Assembly (NCBI GenBank): GCA_041652555.1
Contig: JBAZHE010000002.1
Location: 13,409 to 77,408 of the forward strand
DNA length: 64,000 nucleotides
Origin: Patescibacteria group bacterium
GTDB lineage: Bacteria; Patescibacteriota; Patescibacteriia; Patescibacteriales; WJLG01
Reading direction: 5' to 3'
A program made the translations under genes and the position numbers. Shown here in pieces: positions 16,290 to 51,810 of this stretch (the stretch's first letter is position 1; every line of letters begins with the position of its first letter). The notes under the pieces were generated by a model that saw nothing but the letters and a program-made list of their open reading frames with translations, searched no databases and was not told the DNA's origin.

Positions 16290-16781
16290 ATGGGATTAAT
16301 AAAAGTTTTAGGTCTTGATTGGAAGGTTTTATTAGCACAATTTATAAATTTTGCTGTTTTACTTTTTGTGCTTTTCAAATTTGCCTATAAGCCGATGTTT
16401 AAGTTTTTGGATGATAGAAAAGATAAAATAGAAAAGGGGATAGAGAATGCCGCCCGCGCCGAAGATCGCCTTAAAGAAATTACCGAAAAGGAATTAGAAG
16501 TTTTGAAAAAAGCCAAGGTTGAAGCTGTGGAAATATTAAATAAAGCGCAACTTGAAGCAGAAGAAATTCGTAAGCGAGAATTAACAAAAACTCGCGAAGA
16601 AATAGGTAAAATAATCAATCAAGAAAAGGAAAATATGCGCCAAGAAAAAGCCGAAGTTCTGCGCGACATAAAAAGCGAAGTTTCAAAATTGGTTATATCG
16701 TCAGTGGAGAAAGTTTTAGAAGAAAAAATTGATAGCAAAAAAGATGAGGAGATAATTAAGAAAATGATAAAGGATAGATGA
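16290..16781 (+). CDS. atpF: F0F1 ATP synthase subunit b
   Basis: N-terminal TM helix then long charged coiled coil. Operon position. Confidence 0.85.
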   Translation: MGLIKVLGLDWKVLLAQFINFAVLLFVLFKFAYKPMFKFLDDRKDKIEKGIENAARAEDRLKEITEKELEVLKKAKVEAVEILNKAQLEAEEIRKRELTKTREEIGKIINQEKENMRQEKAEVLRDIKSEVSKLVISSVEKVLEEKIDSKKDEEIIKKMIKDR

Positions 16782-22772: not shown

Positions 22773-24761
22773 ATGTTTAAGAAGGCACAGTTTTTGTCGT
22801 TTTTAGTGATCATTCTGATTGCTGGCAACGTGTCCGCTGGTACATGGCAGAGTATCTGTGAATTTTTTAAAGGAAAAAAACAGGTACAACCGGTTACAAC
22901 GCAGGATAAAAAAGTTGATCCTTGCGATGGGTGTTATTACGGCAATGTCGTGGTTTTGAAACCAGGAGAATCCATTATGGACTTTGTTGTTAAACATAGT
23001 AATTGCTCGGACATTCCGGGTATTGCTATTATGGCAAAATTCAATGGGATTTCCGATGCGGTTTCTCCGATGACAGAATACAGAAATGTTAGAATTCCTA
23101 CATTAAAACAGGCTGACTCAATAAGAAATATTTTGGAATTCAAACAGTCACCAAAAAAACCGAAAATAGTTTCTGATGAGCCCAAGCCGATTATAAAGAA
23201 ACCTCAACCAACAGTCCAAGAGACTAAAAAAGTTCAGCAAGTAGGCCCTTTTCATTGGAAACATCCCGGAGCTGATCCGACTATTTATAATTCTCCGGAG
23301 CAGGTGTGGGTAAAAATGAGTTTTTCTAAAAAAGAGGGAGTTCTTGATTCTCTTCAGGCAAAAGTTGAAAGAGGAGATTGTATTCTTAACTATAAAAGTT
23401 ATAAAGGCGAAGGCTGGATAGAAATGTCCGGTGGCCGTGAAATAGATATTTATGGAAAGGATGGCCGAGGGGTCTTGAATGATTTCACAAATCTGGAATA
23501 TATCGAAGGGACAATGTATGAGGTTGATTATTCACCAACTCAAATAGCCCAAATATTCAAAGCTAATAACTGCGATAACTGGTGCTGGAGATTAGTGGAT
23601 CGTCCAATTGAGCCTCCGTGCGATACGGTTCGTGCTCCTGACACAGTTCGTGTTCATGACACAACTAAGGTTGTTGAGAAAGTCCCTCAGTATGTTGTGC
23701 CATCTGTCCCGGTTGCTCCGCCGAAAGATGAGAGAGGAATTTATGGTGAATGTTTCCTATGGACAGGGTATTACGCCCCGTTGCCGGTGATACATCACGG
23801 TCATTTCTATCTTGGTGGAATCGGTAATGTCTTTGCGCCCATCGGGAAATTTTCCGGTCTTGGTTTGAGCCTTAAGGCCAACGGCTATGCCGGTTGGAGC
23901 CCGAGGTTTTACGACAAGAAAGGAAATCCATTTTTTGGTGATTATGCCGGCGCTTTAGTTGGTATCGGTCCGATACTTGATCTGCAAAGCAGGAGTAAAA
24001 ACTTGAATAGCGGTATCAATACCAGAACAACCTTTGCTGGTAGAGTTTATTGGCAACATGATTGGTATCAGAACCAACATGATAAGTATTGGAATCGTCA
24101 AGGACCAAGGTCTTTTGCTCCGCAGTCGTTCGGGCCGGAGGTTACTTCCTATATAGCTAATTCTAATTGGACCAAGTGGGTTCAAGGATGGATTGGCTAC
24201 AGACAAGACGTAGCTTTTGTTAACGGCAATCTCTGGTATGTTTATAGAGAGGCTCATCTTAATGGTGAGAAACGAGCCCTGCAGGATGAACCGCCATGTA
24301 ATAAGACGGTGATTGACTGGGGCGTGGGGGTATTTCCCTGGCCGGTTTTCAAGGGAAGTTCAACTCTTGGAATTCAACATAAGGGTGACCATATGTTGGA
24401 AGATAATCGTTGGGAATTTTCTCTTGGATTTAGTTTAAGAGTCAAGAAGTTTTTCTTCGGCGCTGGTGTTAAAGAAACGATTGAATCTGTGTATAAAAAC
24501 CAGAATGGAAGATCAATTTATCTTTCAATTGACTTTGATCCGACGCCAAGAAACCAGCAAAAAAAAGTTATAGTTCAAGAATCCGCTCCTATTACCGAGG
24601 AGTTGCATGTTGATGAAAATCGTTATGTTGCCCCAGAACCAGAAGCGGATTCAGATGATGATCCATTTAGAGATTTAATCGATGATCCGAATTCTGGTAA
24701 TCAAAATCAGGAAAATTCAGCGGATTCAAATTACGTTCCGAGTATTCCATTTCAACGGTAG
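22773..24761 (+). CDS. large secreted hypothetical protein (signal peptide, possible degenerate LysM-like segment, aromatic/Gly-rich central domain, acidic C-terminus)
   Basis: Signal peptide MFKKAQFLSFLVIILIAGNVSAGTW. Perfect SD GAGGAGG 6 nt upstream. GC content visibly higher than the neighbouring genes. Confidence 0.5.
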   Translation: MFKKAQFLSFLVIILIAGNVSAGTWQSICEFFKGKKQVQPVTTQDKKVDPCDGCYYGNVVVLKPGESIMDFVVKHSNCSDIPGIAIMAKFNGISDAVSPMTEYRNVRIPTLKQADSIRNILEFKQSPKKPKIVSDEPKPIIKKPQPTVQETKKVQQVGPFHWKHPGADPTIYNSPEQVWVKMSFSKKEGVLDSLQAKVERGDCILNYKSYKGEGWIEMSGGREIDIYGKDGRGVLNDFTNLEYIEGTMYEVDYSPTQIAQIFKANNCDNWCWRLVDRPIEPPCDTVRAPDTVRVHDTTKVVEKVPQYVVPSVPVAPPKDERGIYGECFLWTGYYAPLPVIHHGHFYLGGIGNVFAPIGKFSGLGLSLKANGYAGWSPRFYDKKGNPFFGDYAGALVGIGPILDLQSRSKNLNSGINTRTTFAGRVYWQHDWYQNQHDKYWNRQGPRSFAPQSFGPEVTSYIANSNWTKWVQGWIGYRQDVAFVNGNLWYVYREAHLNGEKRALQDEPPCNKTVIDWGVGVFPWPVFKGSSTLGIQHKGDHMLEDNRWEFSLGFSLRVKKFFFGAGVKETIESVYKNQNGRSIYLSIDFDPTPRNQQKKVIVQESAPITEELHVDENRYVAPEPEADSDDDPFRDLIDDPNSGNQNQENSADSNYVPSIPFQR

Positions 24762-28996: not shown

Positions 28997-29089
28997 GCCC
29001 CCTCTAGAAACCTGCCTGCCGGTAGGCAGAGAGAGTGTGGTCGGACCCAACGGGTCGCCCTTGGCGTACCCCGAGACGGAGTGTGTTGT
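28997..29089 (+). repeat. GC-rich palindromic element, copy A (CCCCTCT ... nested hairpins ... CCGAGACGGAGTGTGTTGTT)
   Basis: Roughly 60% GC in an approx 35% GC genome. Shares 5' CCCCTCT and 3' GACGGRGTGTGTT with copies at 30502-30545 (inverted) and 51552-51603. Confidence 0.5.
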
Positions 29090-29211
29090 TATATTTTGGC
29101 TTATAATGGCCATTTTTTTGTATAAACAAATAGTTGGTAAAACTATTGACAGTTGTTTGATTTTGTGCTAACATAACATGATAATTTAAAAAAATTAAAT
29201 ATCTAAAAAAT

Positions 29212-30489
29212 ATGAAGAAAATCATTGTTATTGCGATTACGCTTTGTGTATTGGGCGCTTCTTTTTATCTATTGAAGCCTGAACCGACACAGAGTAAAAA
29301 TAAGCCGTATTATTCCGGCGAAGCTGTTAATTTTAACGGCAAAATATTCATCGGCTCCACTAATAGTGGAAAGTTTGAGCTTTTTGCTTTGGAGAATGGA
29401 AGCATTATTAGAAAGACTAATGTTGCTTCTAATGATCAAGAGAGTAAGGAGTTCTATGATTTGCTTTTTGAAAAAGCCGGCGGAAAACTCTTTGTTTATT
29501 TAGTTAATGGTCGCTATTTATATAAATATGACATTACTAATCCGATTGTTCCGATTGTAGTTTTGAAAATCAAGGACAATTCTTGGGATTGGTTTACTCG
29601 CCTAGATAAAGTTAACGGAAAATTAATTACCATTGGTTCAAAAGGAACAAAGATTTGGAATAATGATTTCCAGGTTATTGATTCTTATGCCATGATTAAT
29701 AATAGTGTTTTAGGTTCAGTAATTTTTGACAGCCAAATGACTTTTGTTTTGAATACTAAATTAAATGTTTATAACACTGTTTCTAGAGAAAAAGTTTCTG
29801 AATATTCCATCGCGGTTAACGATAAGCAGGCCACTCGTGGTTTGATTAGTAATTCTGACGACAAACTTGTTTATTTTGTTGATGATAAATCTCTTAAAGC
29901 TGTTGATGTTGCTGGTAATGTTAAAAAAGAATTTAAGCATACTTCAACTGTCGGCTATGATGTCGCTTTCTCTGTTGTTAATCCGGATTATATTTATTTT
30001 TCTGACGGCATTGGTATTGTGAAAATTGATAAAAATACTTTTACGCCGGTTGATTGGACTTACACTACTAGAAATACTCCGGCCGGTTCCTGGGCTATGG
30101 GTTTAAAAACCGTTAACGACGGTACCTCTGAAAAAATTGTTATTTTTAACGGTTCTAATATTTTAGTAGTTGATAAAAATTTAGATAATGTTGCTTTTTA
30201 TGAATCAATAGAAGAGGACACTCGCCCGGTTGAAAATCTCTTTTTGAATGTTGATAAGAATCGTGGTGCAGCCGGCGCACAGGTTTCTGTTGTTGGCGGT
30301 GGATTTGGACTAGGCGAAGAATTGACTGTTGAATTTTCTAAAATAAAACAGACAACTATTACTGCTGATCAAAACGGACGTTTTCAAATTGTTTTGACTG
30401 TTCCTAGTGTTTTGCCTGGTATGACTGATATTAAAGCCACTGGCAAGACCACTAAGAAAACTTACAGCACATCATTTAAGATTGAGTAA
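29212..30489 (+). CDS. secreted hypothetical protein with beta-propeller-like region and C-terminal Ig-like (Big/IPT-like) domain
   Basis: Signal peptide MKKIIVIAITLCVLGASFYLL. C-terminal GAQVSVVGGGFGLGEELTVEF ... ITADQNGRFQIVLTVP. Flanked by inverted copies of the GC-rich element. Confidence 0.5.
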   Translation: MKKIIVIAITLCVLGASFYLLKPEPTQSKNKPYYSGEAVNFNGKIFIGSTNSGKFELFALENGSIIRKTNVASNDQESKEFYDLLFEKAGGKLFVYLVNGRYLYKYDITNPIVPIVVLKIKDNSWDWFTRLDKVNGKLITIGSKGTKIWNNDFQVIDSYAMINNSVLGSVIFDSQMTFVLNTKLNVYNTVSREKVSEYSIAVNDKQATRGLISNSDDKLVYFVDDKSLKAVDVAGNVKKEFKHTSTVGYDVAFSVVNPDYIYFSDGIGIVKIDKNTFTPVDWTYTTRNTPAGSWAMGLKTVNDGTSEKIVIFNGSNILVVDKNLDNVAFYESIEEDTRPVENLFLNVDKNRGAAGAQVSVVGGGFGLGEELTVEFSKIKQTTITADQNGRFQIVLTVPSVLPGMTDIKATGKTTKKTYSTSFKIE

Positions 30490-30501
30490 TCATTTTGAAA
30501 T

Positions 30502-30545
30502 AACACACCCCGTCTCGGGTACGAGACACCCCTATCAAGAGGGGG
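30502..30545 (-). repeat. GC-rich palindromic element, copy B (inverted relative to copy A)
   Basis: Minus strand reads TCCCCCTCTTGATAGGGG-TGTCTCGTACCCGAGAC-GGGGTGTGTT. Confidence 0.5.
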
Positions 30546-30555
30546 ATTATAATAT

Positions 30556-31734: not shown

Positions 31735-31881
31735 AAAGAACAACACAAGTTTTTGTTTGAAAATTTATTTCATAAAATTAATTTTCAAATAAACCCTGGT
31801 GGGTTTGAAGGGCGCAAGTCCTTAAATAGCTGGCACATTACAATTAGTATCCACACTTCCAACTTAGAAAAGGAGGCGCAT

Positions 31882-33936
31882 ATGCGCTCCAAGTCATTAG
31901 TAGTTTTTCTGTTTTTTCTGGTTATGCTCGTAATTTTTAGTTGCGACAAAAGCCCTGTATCGCCATCATCGGAAGATGAACGTATTTTTTCCGGTGATCC
32001 ATTAATCGTTGAAGTTGAAAAAGAACCGGTTGATGGTAAAGTCGGAATCAGCTTTTATCTCACTTCTGAAAGTTTTGACTCGGTGAACACCAAGACAGAG
32101 CTTGTTGGATTTGATGACGGCAGGTTACAGGGGTCATATATCTCAAAAGACAATCGTTTGTTCTTTTGGGTTGAAGTGTCCCCCGGAATTTACGTCTTCA
32201 GCTTTAACGGAGATAAAGATGATCCCAAGGAATCAATCATTAGTTCGGATTCATTTTGGGTTCCGGAAATCGGCAAATTTGCTATCAAAGTTACCAAGGA
32301 TTACAAAGTTGTAAAGGCTTCATTAAGTGAAGTTTTGCATCTTGGCAAGGATACTGAGGTTGCAGATTCGGTTGATTCAGTGATCGTGGTTAAGGAAAAT
32401 AGCGACGGCAAGGTGATTATCAAAATCGTTAAGGAAAACGATACGATATTTGATACGGTTACCGTCTCAAAATCAAAGGGCACGATTGTTCTTCTGGGTG
32501 ATTCGGTTATTTATAAAAAACCGTCAAATCCATCCAGCCTAGGTTATGACACGATTAGGTTGTTGCCACCGCAAAGCATTGTTGATTATAACAATGTAGT
32601 CAGGAGTGTTTCATTTGAGGCGGTAACTGTAAATGGGGAAAAGAAGTTTAAAGAGAAGGTTACCATTGACTCTGTTTTGGTAAGAAAGATAAAAGATAAG
32701 GTTTTTAAACCTTTTGCAATCGGTCTGCCAAATTGGAAAGCTTGGAGTAACCTCGGGGTAATAGATTCTAGTACTGGTCGCTATCCATTTACCACTGAAC
32801 CGATGTCGCCAGGACTAATTACCTTTTGTGTTGGTGGCAACTATCAAGATAACTGGGCGGATTCTTCGAAACTAAAAAAGTCCGCTTGGGGTTTTAAAAC
32901 CAAGGATGGTTGGATAATGGCCGGTTGGTTATTTCCCGATGGAAGATTTGTAGCCTGGTCGCTTGTTGACACGACTACGGCAACAGTTAAAGACAGTGTA
33001 AAAATTGATACTGTTGTTATTCATGACACAATCGTTGATTATGACACAACGGTTGTCCGAGATACGATTGTGAAACAAGGTAAAATAATCATTCTTCGGG
33101 ACAGTGTAATTATCATCAGAACAAGAGTGGATACACTTTTAAAGGTGGACACTTTACATGATGTTGATACAATCACTGTTAACGACACGACGGTTATAAA
33201 AGATACTATTATTATCAGGGATACCGTTGTTGTCCGAGATACGATTGTGAAGCAGGGTGATACGATTATATTCCGGGACAGTGTGATTATTATCAGAACA
33301 AGAGTGGACACACTTTTAAATGTGGACACTTTGCATAATAGGGATACGATGTTCGTGTATGATCTTGGGGTGGAAGATGTAGATACAGCCTTTATTGTTA
33401 TTAGTACTTTTAAGGTTGCTGCGGTAGGGGAGATTGTTGTAAAAGATTCCTTTTATATAAAATGGAATTTTCACAACTTTTTAAATGTTGTGAACAAAGA
33501 TTCCTCCTATTTAAGAGATACTATATCTATTTTCCGCGATACAACAGAAATAGATCGTGACACGAATGACCTGGTTCTGGTATTTAAATCGGCAACGGCA
33601 GTAGGAGATAGCTTTGATGTTAAATTTAAAGTTGTCTCAATAGTCGTGCCTGATGATCGTAGTTTTATCAGTGCCATGGGCTTCAAGGGCACGGGAGTTA
33701 TTCAAAGCGACACGATAAATTCCACTTCCAAATCCGACGGGTATTTCAATTTTTCCGTACGGATAAAGAAGGGGACGAAATATCGTATAAATTTCCGTTC
33801 CGGAACTGCCTGGGCTGAACAAGTTGTTTTACGACAGTCCAAATTCGTTTTTGTAGAGGGAACCAGTGTTGATCTGGCAGTTTCCCTTAATAATGACGCT
33901 ACCGGTTTTGATTACGCCTCGCCAGCGGCGCAGTAA
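31882..33936 (+). CDS. hypothetical lipoprotein-like surface protein with internal Asp/Thr/Ile-rich tandem repeats (start moved to the ATG with a perfect SD; the track start at 31753 is an alternative)
   Basis: AAGGAGG SD 6 nt upstream of ATG 31882. Signal peptide with lipobox-like VIFSC. Repeats VRDTIVKQG..I..RDSVIIIRTRVDTLL.VDTLH. Confidence 0.5.
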   Translation: MRSKSLVVFLFFLVMLVIFSCDKSPVSPSSEDERIFSGDPLIVEVEKEPVDGKVGISFYLTSESFDSVNTKTELVGFDDGRLQGSYISKDNRLFFWVEVSPGIYVFSFNGDKDDPKESIISSDSFWVPEIGKFAIKVTKDYKVVKASLSEVLHLGKDTEVADSVDSVIVVKENSDGKVIIKIVKENDTIFDTVTVSKSKGTIVLLGDSVIYKKPSNPSSLGYDTIRLLPPQSIVDYNNVVRSVSFEAVTVNGEKKFKEKVTIDSVLVRKIKDKVFKPFAIGLPNWKAWSNLGVIDSSTGRYPFTTEPMSPGLITFCVGGNYQDNWADSSKLKKSAWGFKTKDGWIMAGWLFPDGRFVAWSLVDTTTATVKDSVKIDTVVIHDTIVDYDTTVVRDTIVKQGKIIILRDSVIIIRTRVDTLLKVDTLHDVDTITVNDTTVIKDTIIIRDTVVVRDTIVKQGDTIIFRDSVIIIRTRVDTLLNVDTLHNRDTMFVYDLGVEDVDTAFIVISTFKVAAVGEIVVKDSFYIKWNFHNFLNVVNKDSSYLRDTISIFRDTTEIDRDTNDLVLVFKSATAVGDSFDVKFKVVSIVVPDDRSFISAMGFKGTGVIQSDTINSTSKSDGYFNFSVRIKKGTKYRINFRSGTAWAEQVVLRQSKFVFVEGTSVDLAVSLNNDATGFDYASPAAQ
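33051..33347 (+). repeat. intragenic direct repeat (two roughly 120-bp copies, about 90% identical, period about 177 bp) inside the 31882-33936 CDS
   Basis: Copy 1 at 33051-33170 and copy 2 at 33228-33347 (GTTGTCCGAGATACGATTGTGAARCARGG ... GTGGACACTTTRCAT). Confidence 0.55.
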
Positions 33937-49534: not shown

Positions 49535-51130
49535 TTATTTATTAAGTTCTTTCTCGAATTTTTCTTCTAAGTTATTTTTCATATCTTCATGAAATTGTTC
49601 GTCGTAATTTTTTACTGCTTTTTTAATTATCCAACAGGAATTTTTTTCTGGGCAGAAACCGGTATTGAAACATTTTGGTTCAATATGCCAATTAAGCCAA
49701 TCCAAATCCATTGTTTTTAGCTTGTGGTTTATTTTTACAGCTTCGTCGCGGGTGACGCGGCGCAATTGTTCATCGGCGGTAGTGCAGAGACGCAAAGGGA
49801 AATAGCCGGCGATTAAATTGTAAAAGTTAACATCTTGCAAAACATAAATTCTAACGGCACGAGGGATGACAAAGATAGCATCATGCTCGGGAACTCCTAG
49901 GGAGATTAATTTTTTATAAGCATCCAAGGATTTTAAAACTGTTTGGGTGTATTTTTTTAAATTTGTTTGGTCGTTGGCGATTTTAGTTGGAATATTTAAT
50001 GTAGTATCAAGATTTTTTATTTGTTCCTCGCTTAAAGTATTATTAGAAATATTTTTGGATAAATCTTGCCAAACCGAACAAGCTTGTTCGGTTGCGTAAT
50101 ACATAGAATCAACCGTCATTGGCATGGTGCGATGGCGTTTTCTTTCTCCCCAAACGCGCCAAGACAAACGAGAAATCATTTTTATATCAAGAGCGTTTTG
50201 GTAATCGCGGGCAATTTCGGCGCGCTTATCAATGGCTGTTGCCCAATTTTTTATCATTGTTTCTTTGTCGGCGTAAATTGCTTCTAAATCTTTTCGTAAA
50301 GAATCCATTTTTTCTTTTAAGGATTTTGTGGCTAGAGAATTGATTGAGACTATTTCACTTTCAGTACTGTTTAATTTTTCTTGAGCTATTTCTCGAGCTA
50401 GATTGACAGTCTTTGGGTTTTTAAAAATATTTGGGTAAGGATAGGTTGTTCGTGGAGCTAGGGAGCGAGATTTGAAAAGTGAGTCAACACCCATTTTTTT
50501 AAATTCCGTCTCTATGGCTTCAATAAAGAATCCTATTTCTTCAGGCATCCAAGCTTTTTCTCGGTCATATTCTCTTTTTAAGGTATTAAAAGACTCAATA
50601 CTATAAGAAATAATGCCGGTACCGTAAACGCCGTATTGTAGGATTTTTGAAGCTTGGTCTTTTTCTATTCCAACCTCTAAAAGTTCGTGAAAAGTGTCTA
50701 GTATTTTTTCAGAAGCTTCTTTATATATTTCTAGAGCTTCTTTGTTTTTGGCAATAGTGGTTGGGTAAACAATATCTTCATAAGTTGAATCAGTGCGACG
50801 TCCAGAGGCCATAAGGGAAGAGGAAAAAACCATACCAGTTAGGGCTGAGTCAATCATTTTTGAGGCTTCATAAGAAAATGAAAAAACTGGTGTTGTCGCC
50901 ATTGAAGCGTGGCCTTTTAAAGAAGAGTTTTTGAGAATGGTTTTAACTTTTTTGGTCATGTCTTGGCCTTTTTCTTCAGCTTCTTTCTTGAGATTTTCAG
51001 CTGATTTTCCTTTAAACGTCAAAAGGGCACCTAGAGCGCAAATGCTTTCTGGATCAAGTCCGCCGTTTTCATCTGTTAGCACCGGGTTGATGCCAAGGAA
51101 ATTTATTTTGAAATCTTTGGTAGATAACAT
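49535..51130 (-). CDS. thyX: flavin-dependent thymidylate synthase ThyX, long form (531 aa) with a roughly 230-aa insertion
   Basis: Exact ThyX motif RHR-X7-S (RHRTMPMTVDS). N-terminal GHASMATTPVFSF aligns with the ThyX HETPFEH region. C-terminal VPEHDAIFVIPRAVRIYV ... LR aligns with the ThyX helical core. Confidence 0.6.
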   Translation of the reverse strand: MLSTKDFKINFLGINPVLTDENGGLDPESICALGALLTFKGKSAENLKKEAEEKGQDMTKKVKTILKNSSLKGHASMATTPVFSFSYEASKMIDSALTGMVFSSSLMASGRRTDSTYEDIVYPTTIAKNKEALEIYKEASEKILDTFHELLEVGIEKDQASKILQYGVYGTGIISYSIESFNTLKREYDREKAWMPEEIGFFIEAIETEFKKMGVDSLFKSRSLAPRTTYPYPNIFKNPKTVNLAREIAQEKLNSTESEIVSINSLATKSLKEKMDSLRKDLEAIYADKETMIKNWATAIDKRAEIARDYQNALDIKMISRLSWRVWGERKRHRTMPMTVDSMYYATEQACSVWQDLSKNISNNTLSEEQIKNLDTTLNIPTKIANDQTNLKKYTQTVLKSLDAYKKLISLGVPEHDAIFVIPRAVRIYVLQDVNFYNLIAGYFPLRLCTTADEQLRRVTRDEAVKINHKLKTMDLDWLNWHIEPKCFNTGFCPEKNSCWIIKKAVKNYDEQFHEDMKNNLEEKFEKELNK

Positions 51131-51133
51131 AAT

Positions 51134-51194
51134 AATGCTAAATGCTAAATGATGAATGCTAAATAAAATAATTTAGCATTTAGCATTTAGCATT
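51134..51194. repeat. near-perfect 61-nt palindrome of heptad repeats, (AATGCTA)n ... (TAGCATT)n, filling the dcd-thyX spacer
   Basis: AATGCTAAATGCTAAATGATGAATGCTAAAT-AAAATA-ATTTAGCATTTAGCATTTAGCATT. Ends 3 nt before the thyX start codon. Confidence 0.55.
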
Positions 51195-51201
51195 GTTAAT
51201 T

Positions 51202-51810
51202 TTATATTTGTACCTCTTGTCCTTCGGTGCTTACTCTTCCGCCCATCCATTGGCCACGATATTGATTGCCTTCACCTAGAACTTCTTGAAAGGTGATATG
51301 GGCGATACGAGCACCGAAAGAAATTTTAACATTAGCTGGACCAAGATTGCAAACACCAAAAGTTAATTCTCCAGAATATCCCGGTTGAACAATCCCGTTA
51401 AACATTCCAAGGCCGGAACGAAACATTGTTGTGCGCGGGAAGACAACTCCGGAAAGAGTAGTCGGCAAATTAACTTTTTCCATTGTTTTAACAAGGTAAT
51501 ATTTTCCAGGTTCAAAAATAAAAATATCTTCGTTAACAGAAGTTGGCAAATCCCCTCTAAAAAGAGGGGTGGCGCGGTACTCCGCGACGGGGTGTGTTGT
51601 GTTGGAATTTTGAGCTTTGCCAACTAGTTTAGTGTTTGGTGTTTGTCTTTCTTCTACACCTAAAAATCCATCTCCTTCTAATTCATAAATTTCTCCCAAC
51701 CTCAAATCAAAACCCGCACCTTCGGGATTATTCATTTCCCGTTCGCACAAACCCCCAACCAGATTTATTTCCCTTACTAATTCGTGTAGTTTTTTAATAC
51801 CTAGAATCAT
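51202..51810 (-). CDS. dcd: dCTP deaminase
   Basis: GFDLRLG ... PRTTMFRSGLGMFNGIVQPGYSGELTFGVCN matches Dcd motifs. Contains an in-frame copy of the GC-rich element. Confidence 0.8.
   Translation of the reverse strand: MILGIKKLHELVREINLVGGLCEREMNNPEGAGFDLRLGEIYELEGDGFLGVEERQTPNTKLVGKAQNSNTTHPVAEYRATPLFRGDLPTSVNEDIFIFEPGKYYLVKTMEKVNLPTTLSGVVFPRTTMFRSGLGMFNGIVQPGYSGELTFGVCNLGPANVKISFGARIAHITFQEVLGEGNQYRGQWMGGRVSTEGQEVQI
51552..51603 (+). repeat. GC-rich palindromic element, copy C, lying in frame within dcd (encodes NSNTTHPVAEYRATPLFRGDLP on the opposite strand)
   Basis: CCCCTCTAAAAAGAGGGG-TGGCGCGGTACTCCGCGAC-GGGGTGTGTTGTGTT. The stem GCGCGG/CCGCGC replaces copy B's GTCTCG/CGAGAC (compensatory change). 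Confidence 0.45.

Follow-up and report, generated by a model that had tools for sequence, protein, structure and literature searches.

A GC-rich two-hairpin repeat in frame within a loop of a patescibacterial dCTP deaminase-family gene

What is a GC-rich palindrome doing in frame inside the dCTP deaminase gene (dcd) of a small, AT-rich genome? The question is raised by a stretch of 64,000 nucleotides, hereafter the window, from the metagenome-assembled genome (MAG) of a Patescibacteria group bacterium (contig JBAZHE010000002.1). In this window, a first-pass annotation recognised three such palindromes, referred to as copies A, B and C in order of position, and likened copy C, which lies in dcd, to the Rickettsia palindromic elements (RPEs) that insert in frame into housekeeping genes. 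Copy C is very probably one copy of a dispersed, non-autonomous DNA repeat resembling repetitive extragenic palindromic (REP) sequences, inserted in frame in a loop of Dcd. The RPE-like reading is supported both by the existence of intergenic and in-frame copies of the same family and by the insertion of this one into a loop.

The host gene and its additional segment

The locus comprises the following features, given in window coordinates:

51202..51810, minus strand: intact open reading frame (ORF) of 202 aa, dCTP deaminase/dUTPase superfamily (Pfam DCD, Foldseek, ortholog alignment)
51544..51603, minus strand: 20 extra codons (60 nt) relative to the 182-aa orthologs, coding for a loop predicted to be disordered (codon alignment, AlphaFold2)
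51548..51603, plus strand: copy C, two-hairpin GC-rich element antisense to dcd (covariance-model match at 51547-51601, 56.2 bits, E 5e-19), with the layout AAAT-CCCCTCT-AAAA-AGAGGGG-TG-G[CGCGG-TACT-CCGCG]AC-GGGGTGTGTTGTGTT
51552..51569, plus strand: hairpin 1, conserved, stem CCCCTCT/AGAGGGG with a 4-nt loop (fold; 94.8% of cells paired across 108 copies)
51571..51588, plus strand: hairpin 2, variable and covarying, G.CGCGG-TACT-CCGCG.C (fold; covariation)
51589..51603, plus strand: conserved 3' tail GGGGTGTGTT, with an extra GTGTT in copy C (conservation ends right after GTGTGTT)

By its Pfam DCD match (PF22769, 75.7 bits, E 5.5e-21) and its predicted jelly-roll Dcd/dUTPase fold, the host ORF is assigned to the Dcd/dUTPase superfamily, an assignment that does not distinguish between a deaminase, a dUTPase and a bifunctional enzyme. 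Solved dCTP deaminase:dUTPase structures (2qlp, 4xjc and 1xs1 among others) were the top Foldseek matches of its AlphaFold2 model, with a probability of 1.00. All the columns invariant across 40 aligned orthologs are kept in the window protein (P0001), which was found identical on three contigs, one each from NCBI, JGI and ENA; hence, the gene is considered intact and not an assembly artefact. Its neighbours are a dCMP-deaminase gene on one side and a long ThyX-like gene on the other.

The letters at 51552-51603, CCCCTCTAAAAAGAGGGGTGGCGCGGTACTCCGCGACGGGGTGTGTTGTGTT, lie wholly within this ORF, and the minus-strand frame reads through them without a stop as NSNTTHPVAEYRATPLFRGDLP, as the first-pass annotation had described. 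The coordinates themselves have to be extended slightly, since the 5' end of the family takes in the AAtT that precedes CCCCTCT, and copy C is better placed at 51548-51603. Its GC content is 57%, compared with 39% for the rest of dcd and 37% for the window. As single-stranded DNA, it folds into two adjacent hairpins on either strand, with energies of -15.1 and -13.9 kcal/mol (z -5.6 and -5.7), none of 200 shuffles being as good.

A homolog search returned 1728 Dcd relatives with a modal length of 182 aa. The first-pass annotation had estimated an excess of about 14 residues over E. coli Dcd; the useful yardstick is instead the 182-aa Patescibacteria orthologs, over which the excess is 20 aa. 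When 40 relatives were aligned, the sole internal length variation was the segment between KLVAK.. and ..FIFEPGKYY. At this position, a short 18-residue segment rich in Lys, Glu and Asn is found in 75 of the 115 closest homologs and in about 70 of 80 species-representative loci, where it is coded by AT-rich DNA (15-46% GC), and the peptide NTTHPVAEYRATPLFRGD is present in none of the orthologs compared (these 115 homologs and 80 loci). The ortholog comparison thus turned out as had been anticipated, and copy C appears in it as an insertion relative to most orthologs. In the codon alignment, the extra codons stop precisely at the 3' end of the element and, on the 5' side, depart from its end by no more than 4 nt, in keeping with the coincidence of boundaries that had been anticipated. 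In the AlphaFold2 model, residues 70-92, which lie between strands 60-65 and 96-99, are coil with a predicted local distance difference test score (pLDDT) below 50; the extra residues are modelled as a disordered loop in the Dcd/dUTPase fold, in agreement with the surface loop that had been proposed.

A perfect 10-nt inverted repeat encloses copy C, with the arms AGTTGGCAAA (51541-51550) and TTTGCCAACT (51616-51625); such a repeat is given by 72 of 20000 flank shuffles (0.36%). Its left arm codes for part of the conserved KLVGK and its right arm for an extra DLPT, and the element together with the DLPT-coding arm makes up the 60 inserted nt. Flanking inverted repeats are not a general trait of the family, their excess being traced to neighbouring or nested elements. 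A generic scan for GC-rich hairpins returned four of them in the window, about the number obtained in shuffles, which indicates that the window is not hairpin-rich; the dcd hairpin is the only one of the four inside a long ORF.

A dispersed family of two-hairpin repeats

The 17-mer pattern CCGMGACGGRGTGTGTT occurs at exactly three sites of the window (29071, 30502 and 51582) for 0.13 expected, and the two other copies are located as follows:

28998..29090, plus strand: copy A, intergenic, degenerate or composite relative (7.8 bits with covariance model R1)
30499..30549, minus strand: copy B, canonical, intergenic, between ORF 29212-30489 and a GT4 glycosyltransferase gene (57 bits, E 2e-19)

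The likeness claimed among the three copies is therefore strong for B and C, whereas copy A is a degenerate or composite relative. Copies B and C have in common hairpin 1 (CCCCTCT/AGAGGGG), the TG linker and the tail ACGGGGTGTGTT, while hairpin 2 differs compensatorily, with CGCGG/CCGCG in copy C versus TCTCG/CGAGA in copy B. Copy A retains CCCCCTCT on its 5' side and CCGAGACGGAGTGTGTTGTT on its 3' side, with an additional CCTGCCTGCCGGTAGGCAG hairpin nested within hairpin 1; a nested CCTGCCTGCCGGCAGGCAG variant of the same kind also occurs in a metagenome locus (L147).

Metagenome contigs were scanned for the exact pattern AGGGGTG-N10-26-ACGGGGTGTGTT. Matches were obtained at 120 or more metagenome loci and on 5 viral contigs, with contig GC contents of 0.29-0.70, and numerous matches stand at contig ends or in several copies per contig, as a genomic repeat would show. 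The upstream CCCCT arm, which the pattern does not force, is present in 104 of the 126 unique matches. These 126 copies hold 103 distinct middle segments with stems of 3-10 bp and loops that are mostly GAA or GCA, and stems of at least 5 bp are formed in 52% of them compared with 9% of shuffles. Covariance model R1 was built from an alignment (A3) of 108 sequences, 105 of them from other contigs, with copies B and C and the copy of locus L001 included. The inner pair 43-65 of hairpin 2 takes all four Watson-Crick types in this alignment (AU 29, GC 27, CG 25, UA 21), and its covariation score of 0.26 compares with 0.087 in shuffles (0 of 500 as high) and with 0.05-0.11 when the partners are slid.

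The family is 50-56 nt long, with the layout AAtT-CCCCTCT-loop-AGAGGGG-TG-[variable hairpin]-ACGGGGTGTGTT. Its conservation begins at AAtT (T 97%, A 78%, A 56%) just 5' of CCCCTCT and ends directly after GTGTGTT; AAtT could be the target or part of the element. Terminal inverted repeats are absent, the 5' end AATTCCCCTCTT and the reverse complement of the 3' end TAACACACCCCGT sharing a CCCC run only, and target duplications were not detected among 110 copies (best direct repeat of 2 nt in 17% versus 9% of controls; at most 5.5% for 3 nt or more). In Rfam 15, copies A, B and C gave nothing at the gathering threshold and only chance-level matches at E up to 10.

Copies in one contig usually have the same hairpin 2 (L180, L148, L168, L109), which fits amplification inside a genome. 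In low-GC contigs, the orientation of intergenic copies is random with respect to the flanking genes (17 co-oriented, ->->, versus 16 anti-oriented, <-<-; 9 divergent versus 8 convergent), and 23 of 107 low-GC copies are within ORFs, 13 in sense and 10 in antisense. On the basis of its distribution, the element behaves as DNA and not as a strand-specific RNA signal. A terminator-like or strand-specific placement was considered and found negative in these orientation tests. In-frame copies occur in housekeeping genes coding for methionyl-tRNA synthetase (MetRS, L092), RarA (L127), GatA (L151) and MiaA (two copies, L157), and for a DNA methylase (L187). All three frames and both orientations are used, with the recurring peptides SPLERGG..RRGVL, IPLLRGV..GRGVF and (L/I)THPV..PLxRG(D/N).

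Four different cargo proteins of the type IX secretion system (T9SS) hold the element at the same point of their C-terminal Por_Secre_tail domain (..NPFNPxTxIxF-[IPLxRGV....GRGVF]-VKLxIYD..):

L085, 4247-4298: copy in a T9SS tail domain
L125, 324-356: copy in a T9SS tail domain
L169, 1779-1830: copy in a T9SS tail domain
L185, 4088-4139: copy in a T9SS tail domain

This domain is an apparent second hotspot, and the family is apparently not limited to Patescibacteria. A shorter relative, which constitutes a separate repeat type, is also found in Patescibacteria, as a CCCCTCC..GGAGGGG hairpin followed by TTAGGGGTGGT without hairpin 2. This short type (hairpin plus GGGGTGGTT) also lies in frame in Dcd, MetRS and GatB (the latter in L206), giving NHPQTPPSKGGG or SPLLSKEGxGGG, and was located at these sites:

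L019, 5260-5335: short-type copy
L030, 11563-11620: short-type copy
L206, 2721-2762 and 8946-8986: short-type copies
L002 and L005, dcd loop: short-type copies

At L135 (239-300), a short-type hairpin has a canonical long element in its loop (CTCCCCTCCTAG[element]AAGGAGGGG), a nesting that suggests that hairpin loops may be insertion targets.

The Dcd loop as a recurrent site and the alternative explanations

Enlarged loops are present in 40 of the 115 closest Dcd homologs, with at least 8 sequence types. In L001, whose protein is 76% identical to that of the window, a canonical copy (67 bits) follows the same AAT TCC codons in forward orientation, opposite to the reverse copy of the window. 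The dcd loop of L206 holds a short-type reverse copy beside a canonical long forward copy (59 bits), that of L208 a long forward copy (42 bits), that of L207 a short reverse copy, and those of L002 and L005 short forward copies. Hairpin 2 is different in every long dcd-loop copy. Between the L208 copy and an intergenic copy of L005 (17637-17688), the identity is about 90% and extends to hairpin 2; therefore, the same variant occupies dcd in one genome and an intergenic site in another. An in-situ inversion between the 10-nt inverted repeats was also considered, to account for the reversed orientation of the L001 copy; the flipped segment is in frame but gains a TGA (..VVLEF*ALPT..), which leaves it unsupported as a simple history.

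In a neighbour-joining tree of Dcd built without the loop, the insert-bearing proteins concentrate in one clade of about 37 with their types interleaved, and sister pairs carry different inserts (P0008/P0010 and P0005/P0006). Because orientation and hairpin 2 differ among the dcd-loop copies, several insertion events are required, whose number is uncertain since the tree carries no support values. Other dcd-loop inserts resemble, at the protein level only, translated GC-rich repeats of different families, with peptides such as HCEESPGRRSNP..EIAS..ARNDN, ..ETSAGKP..AFAGAMADK and SSYAKASEDK; the homologs bearing such repeat-like inserts are P0011, P0013, P0096, P0088, P0029, P0104, P0086 and P0118.

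Such a concentration could be due to domestication of the inserted loop, if its additional peptide gave this Dcd clade a useful property (an interaction surface or a regulation) and were kept by selection. The loop is enlarged in nearly all of the clade, and a subgroup of 18 members (17 in another labelling) shares a conserved +10 motif, NPxCxxGEExxGV, which suggests that the loop can be functional in that clade. However, at least five unrelated loop sequences are interleaved there (the long and the short type, each in forward and in reverse orientation, and HCEE..EIAS), no other homolog has the window peptide and its loop is predicted to be disordered, and the loop peptides correspond to a DNA repeat translated in different frames and orientations, all of which makes domestication unlikely. 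A selected cis-acting RNA structure in the dcd mRNA (translational pause, RNase barrier or regulator site), as opposed to selfish DNA, is quite improbable. It would account for the strong fold of the mRNA sense (-13.9 kcal/mol, z -5.7), for a 95-nt stem structure including the flanking 10-nt inverted repeat (-18.5 kcal/mol, z -4.4) and for the covariation of hairpin 2, which is like that of a structured RNA, but not for the opposite orientation of the same family in the same dcd loop of related genomes, nor for the random orientation of copies relative to genes; besides, most orthologs have no structure at the loop site, and Rfam offers no match even at E up to 10.

The AT-rich mitochondrial genomes of yeasts also contain mobile inserts that are short, rich in GC and able to form hairpins, known as GC clusters and 'byp' elements; some lie within protein genes, and byps are skipped by the ribosome. 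By formal likeness to these organellar inserts, and with no direct support, it could be imagined that copy C is not translated, through ribosome bypass or removal from the mRNA, the open frame being incidental. Yet every intragenic copy examined keeps the host frame without a stop, in three frames and two orientations, which bypass would not need and which would imply translation; as no evident take-off/landing codon pair or flanking stop is seen at 51540-51625 either, this is a very improbable explanation. Finally, the idea that the likeness of copy C to A and B is coincidental, or that the repeat arose from the coding sequence of dcd, could invoke the small number of copies in the window (three) and the weakness of copy A, but it is refuted by E values of about 1e-19 for B and C with a model drawn mostly (105/108) from other contigs, by the intergenic copies of the window and of at least 120 other contigs, with hundreds of copies outside dcd, and by the absence of the segment from the 182-aa orthologs.

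Several points weigh against the insertion of a mobile repeat as the origin of copy C. The best non-self ortholog is 76-79% identical and no empty-site allele came from a near-identical strain, so the insertion event is deduced from the phylogenetic distribution and not directly observed; likewise, translation of the loop is deduced from the open frame. Canonical copies are few (2 in the 64-kb window; related loci totalling 1.06 Mb hold about 5), and given this low number, recent activity in this genome is unproven. The blocks AGGGGTG and ACGGGGTGTGTT (CGT included) were fixed by the search pattern, and their invariance in A3 is partly by construction. No neighbour gene is shared among 125 loci and no mobilising enzyme was found: a Pfam scan and clustering of 150 flanking ORFs gave no recurrent transposase and no Y1 transposase, with 23S_rRNA_IVP (3 members) and DUF559 (2 members) weakly recurrent, and a scan of the window for HUH/Y1 motifs, a weak test, was negative.

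Known repeats, possible spread and neighbouring genes

RPEs (Ogata et al. 2000 and 2002, summarised in PMC10969869 and PMC3733652) are described as inserting in frame into unrelated metabolic genes of Rickettsia (PMC10969869). The present repeats resemble them in being dispersed and palindromic, intergenic as well as in frame in unrelated housekeeping genes, in a small AT-rich genome and without a linked transposase, and the added peptide segments are compatible with the host fold in both. Moreover, the CGTC tag that ends RPE-4 and RPE-6 (PMC3733652) is also seen here, since hairpin 2 reads CGTC plus stem-loop on its reverse strand. In contrast, the element is 50-56 nt long versus about 100-150 bp for the classic RPE-1 type, combines one sequence-conserved hairpin with one free-sequence hairpin and a G/T tail, and is hosted by a Patescibacteria MAG within a family that is not confined to one genus (29-70% GC contigs, T9SS-bearing organisms); size, host and architecture set it apart.

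RPE-4 and RPE-6, like Neisseria dRS3, belong to a superfamily of CGTC-tagged REPs, whose stem-loops carry CGTC (or TGTC/CCTC) at one end and a short unpaired CCA tail at the other. This superfamily has no dedicated transposase, and its four defined families, found mainly in Alphaproteobacteria, have family-specific stems of 8-9 bp starting with two A-T pairs and loops of 4-5 nt (PMC3733652). The reverse strands of copies C, B and A (CCCCGTCGCGG, CCCCGTCTCGG and CTCCGTCTCGG) all carry the CGTC tag, and the base completing it, which the pattern does not force, is at least 90% conserved in A3 (CGT itself being pattern-fixed in the metagenome copies). On its reverse strand, hairpin 2 of copy C consists of CGTC, the stem-loop and CCA (CCCCGTCGCGGAGTACCGCGCCACC), and TGG between the hairpins, or CCA on the tagged strand, is found in 78 of 108 copies, copy C included, the rest having TGT (ACA). 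The present family is thus similar to CGTC REPs in its short stem-loops with the tag at one end and the CCA tail at the other, in the want of a dedicated transposase, in its mostly extragenic copies with an in-frame intragenic minority, and in its clustering and nesting with other repeats. It differs in a tagged stem of 3-10 bp that starts with G-C then G.A or T-A and is free and covarying in sequence, in the constant fusion of the tagged hairpin to the conserved hairpin 1 and the GGGGTGTGTT tail, which has no counterpart in PMC3733652, and in the phyla concerned.

With GTAG REPs and REPINs, which are mobilised by the IS200/IS605-type Y1 transposase RAYT, the family shares small hairpins without terminal inverted repeats or target duplications, a structure kept by covariation, a presumed handling of single-stranded DNA and a genome-specific variant common to the copies of a genome. 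However, no conserved GTAG head is seen and no RAYT or REPtron stands beside any copy (in the 64-kb window and the short contigs), and whereas REPs are normally species-specific, two blocks are identical here across very different GC backgrounds. [quoted passage not shown] IS200/IS605-derived, PATE-like elements have two subterminal hairpins on one strand without either feature, insert 3' of a fixed tetra- or pentanucleotide and have a Y1 transposase as partner. The present family has the same two-hairpin form, and its 5' AAtT may be such a target or part of the element; its two hairpins do not resemble one another, and the 150 neighbour ORFs yielded no Y1 partner.

The element is accordingly classified as a new family of the REP/RPE kind, corresponding to no named family and not a MITE. 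Literature searches by sequence string and by topic, of incomplete coverage, gave no description of the element or of in-frame repeats in the Candidate Phyla Radiation (CPR)/Patescibacteria. The novelty that the first-pass annotation saw for a CPR-like genome holds for the lineage and the family but not for the kind of behaviour, intragenic REPs having been catalogued and in-frame REP-like repeats being known outside Rickettsia (Di Nocera, De Gregorio and Rocco 2013, PMC3733652), and the family is not CPR-specific. The new aspects are the family itself, the wide range of dissimilar genomes in which it occurs, and the finding that a single enzyme loop has been remodelled repeatedly, in both orientations.

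The tiny genomes of Patescibacteria leave little space for junk, and selfish repeats hiding in frame in essential enzymes show how sequence novelty can still be acquired. The near-identical core in organisms of 29-70% GC points to a widely shared mobilising or recognition activity, and the Dcd loop, with its repeated turnover, is a natural experiment in how insertions are tolerated and targets chosen. Annotators should be warned that odd GC-rich peptide motifs (SPLERGG..RGVL, THPV..PLxRGD) are translations of repeats and not domains, and model R1 would permit a census across all genomes.

As to mechanism, copy C would have entered the only surface loop of this Dcd/dUTPase-family enzyme that is tolerant of changes in length, or have taken the place of a previous insert. 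Its survival could be owed to a length of 60 nt, a multiple of three, to the scarcity of stop codons in GC-rich sequence and to a loop in which additional residues are tolerated; insertions elsewhere in this small gene would have been purged. More tentatively, the element may spread as DNA, its single strands probably being folded into hairpins and acted upon in trans by an enzyme whose gene lies elsewhere, a route that has been proposed for REPs. Its insertions might also favour hairpin loops or repeat copies already in place. The dcd-loop hotspot could then be explained by this preference together with the tolerance of the loop. It is possible, though doubtful, that the family represents an undescribed cross-phylum class of hairpin DNA parasite whose blocks AGAGGGGTG and ACGGGGTGTGTT are recognised by a conserved enzyme (candidates being DUF559 nucleases and Avd-like '23S rRNA IVS' proteins) and which homes into hairpin loops or existing copies. 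If so, certain protein loops, such as the Dcd loop and the T9SS tail-domain loop, would be landing sites used again and again, from which streamlined genomes would steadily gain new surface peptides.

Small genes for DUF559 (Vsr-like endonuclease) and PF05635 (23S rRNA IVS/Avd-like) proteins stand directly beside or between copies, and the DUF559 genes of L161 and L148 are flanked by copies. They are a lead, not evidence, for a mobiliser:

L161, 1-800: DUF559/PF05635 gene by copies
L148, 1240-1958: DUF559/PF05635 gene by copies
L193, 1210-1806: DUF559/PF05635 gene by copies
L008, 20022-20420: DUF559/PF05635 gene by copies

In the window, copies A (+) and B (-) flank in inverted orientation a 425-aa ORF (29212-30489) within a run of GT4 glycosyltransferase genes. 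This ORF has no Pfam match, and its N-terminal hydrophobic segment resembles, as judged by eye, a signal sequence. The arrangement could be a cargo cassette or just repeat-rich spacers; the same forward-gene-reverse order is found around the DUF559 gene of L161.

Next to dcd, the ThyX-like ORF 49535-51130 (-) codes for 531 aa, about twice the usual length, and the Thy1 domain matches residues 306-461 only, in two stretches. At the equivalent place, L206 has a ThyA-type thymidylate synthase gene (PF00303), and the same contig has a DHFR gene (PF00186) farther downstream. Dcd and the ThyX-like gene are separated by a 71-nt spacer (51131-51200) that is an AT-rich long inverted repeat, AATGCTAAATGCTAAATGATGAATGCTAAAT...ATTTAGCATTTAGCATTTAGCATT, and similar repeats of the AAATGATAAATG type occur at 16762 and 39795 (family D13). 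Elsewhere in the window, surface-protein-like coding repeats are found at 33052-33350 and 23622-23683, in the large ORF 31753-33936 and in another ORF, and consist of 122-nt direct repeats (84% identical) and 44-nt DTV/DTI-rich units.

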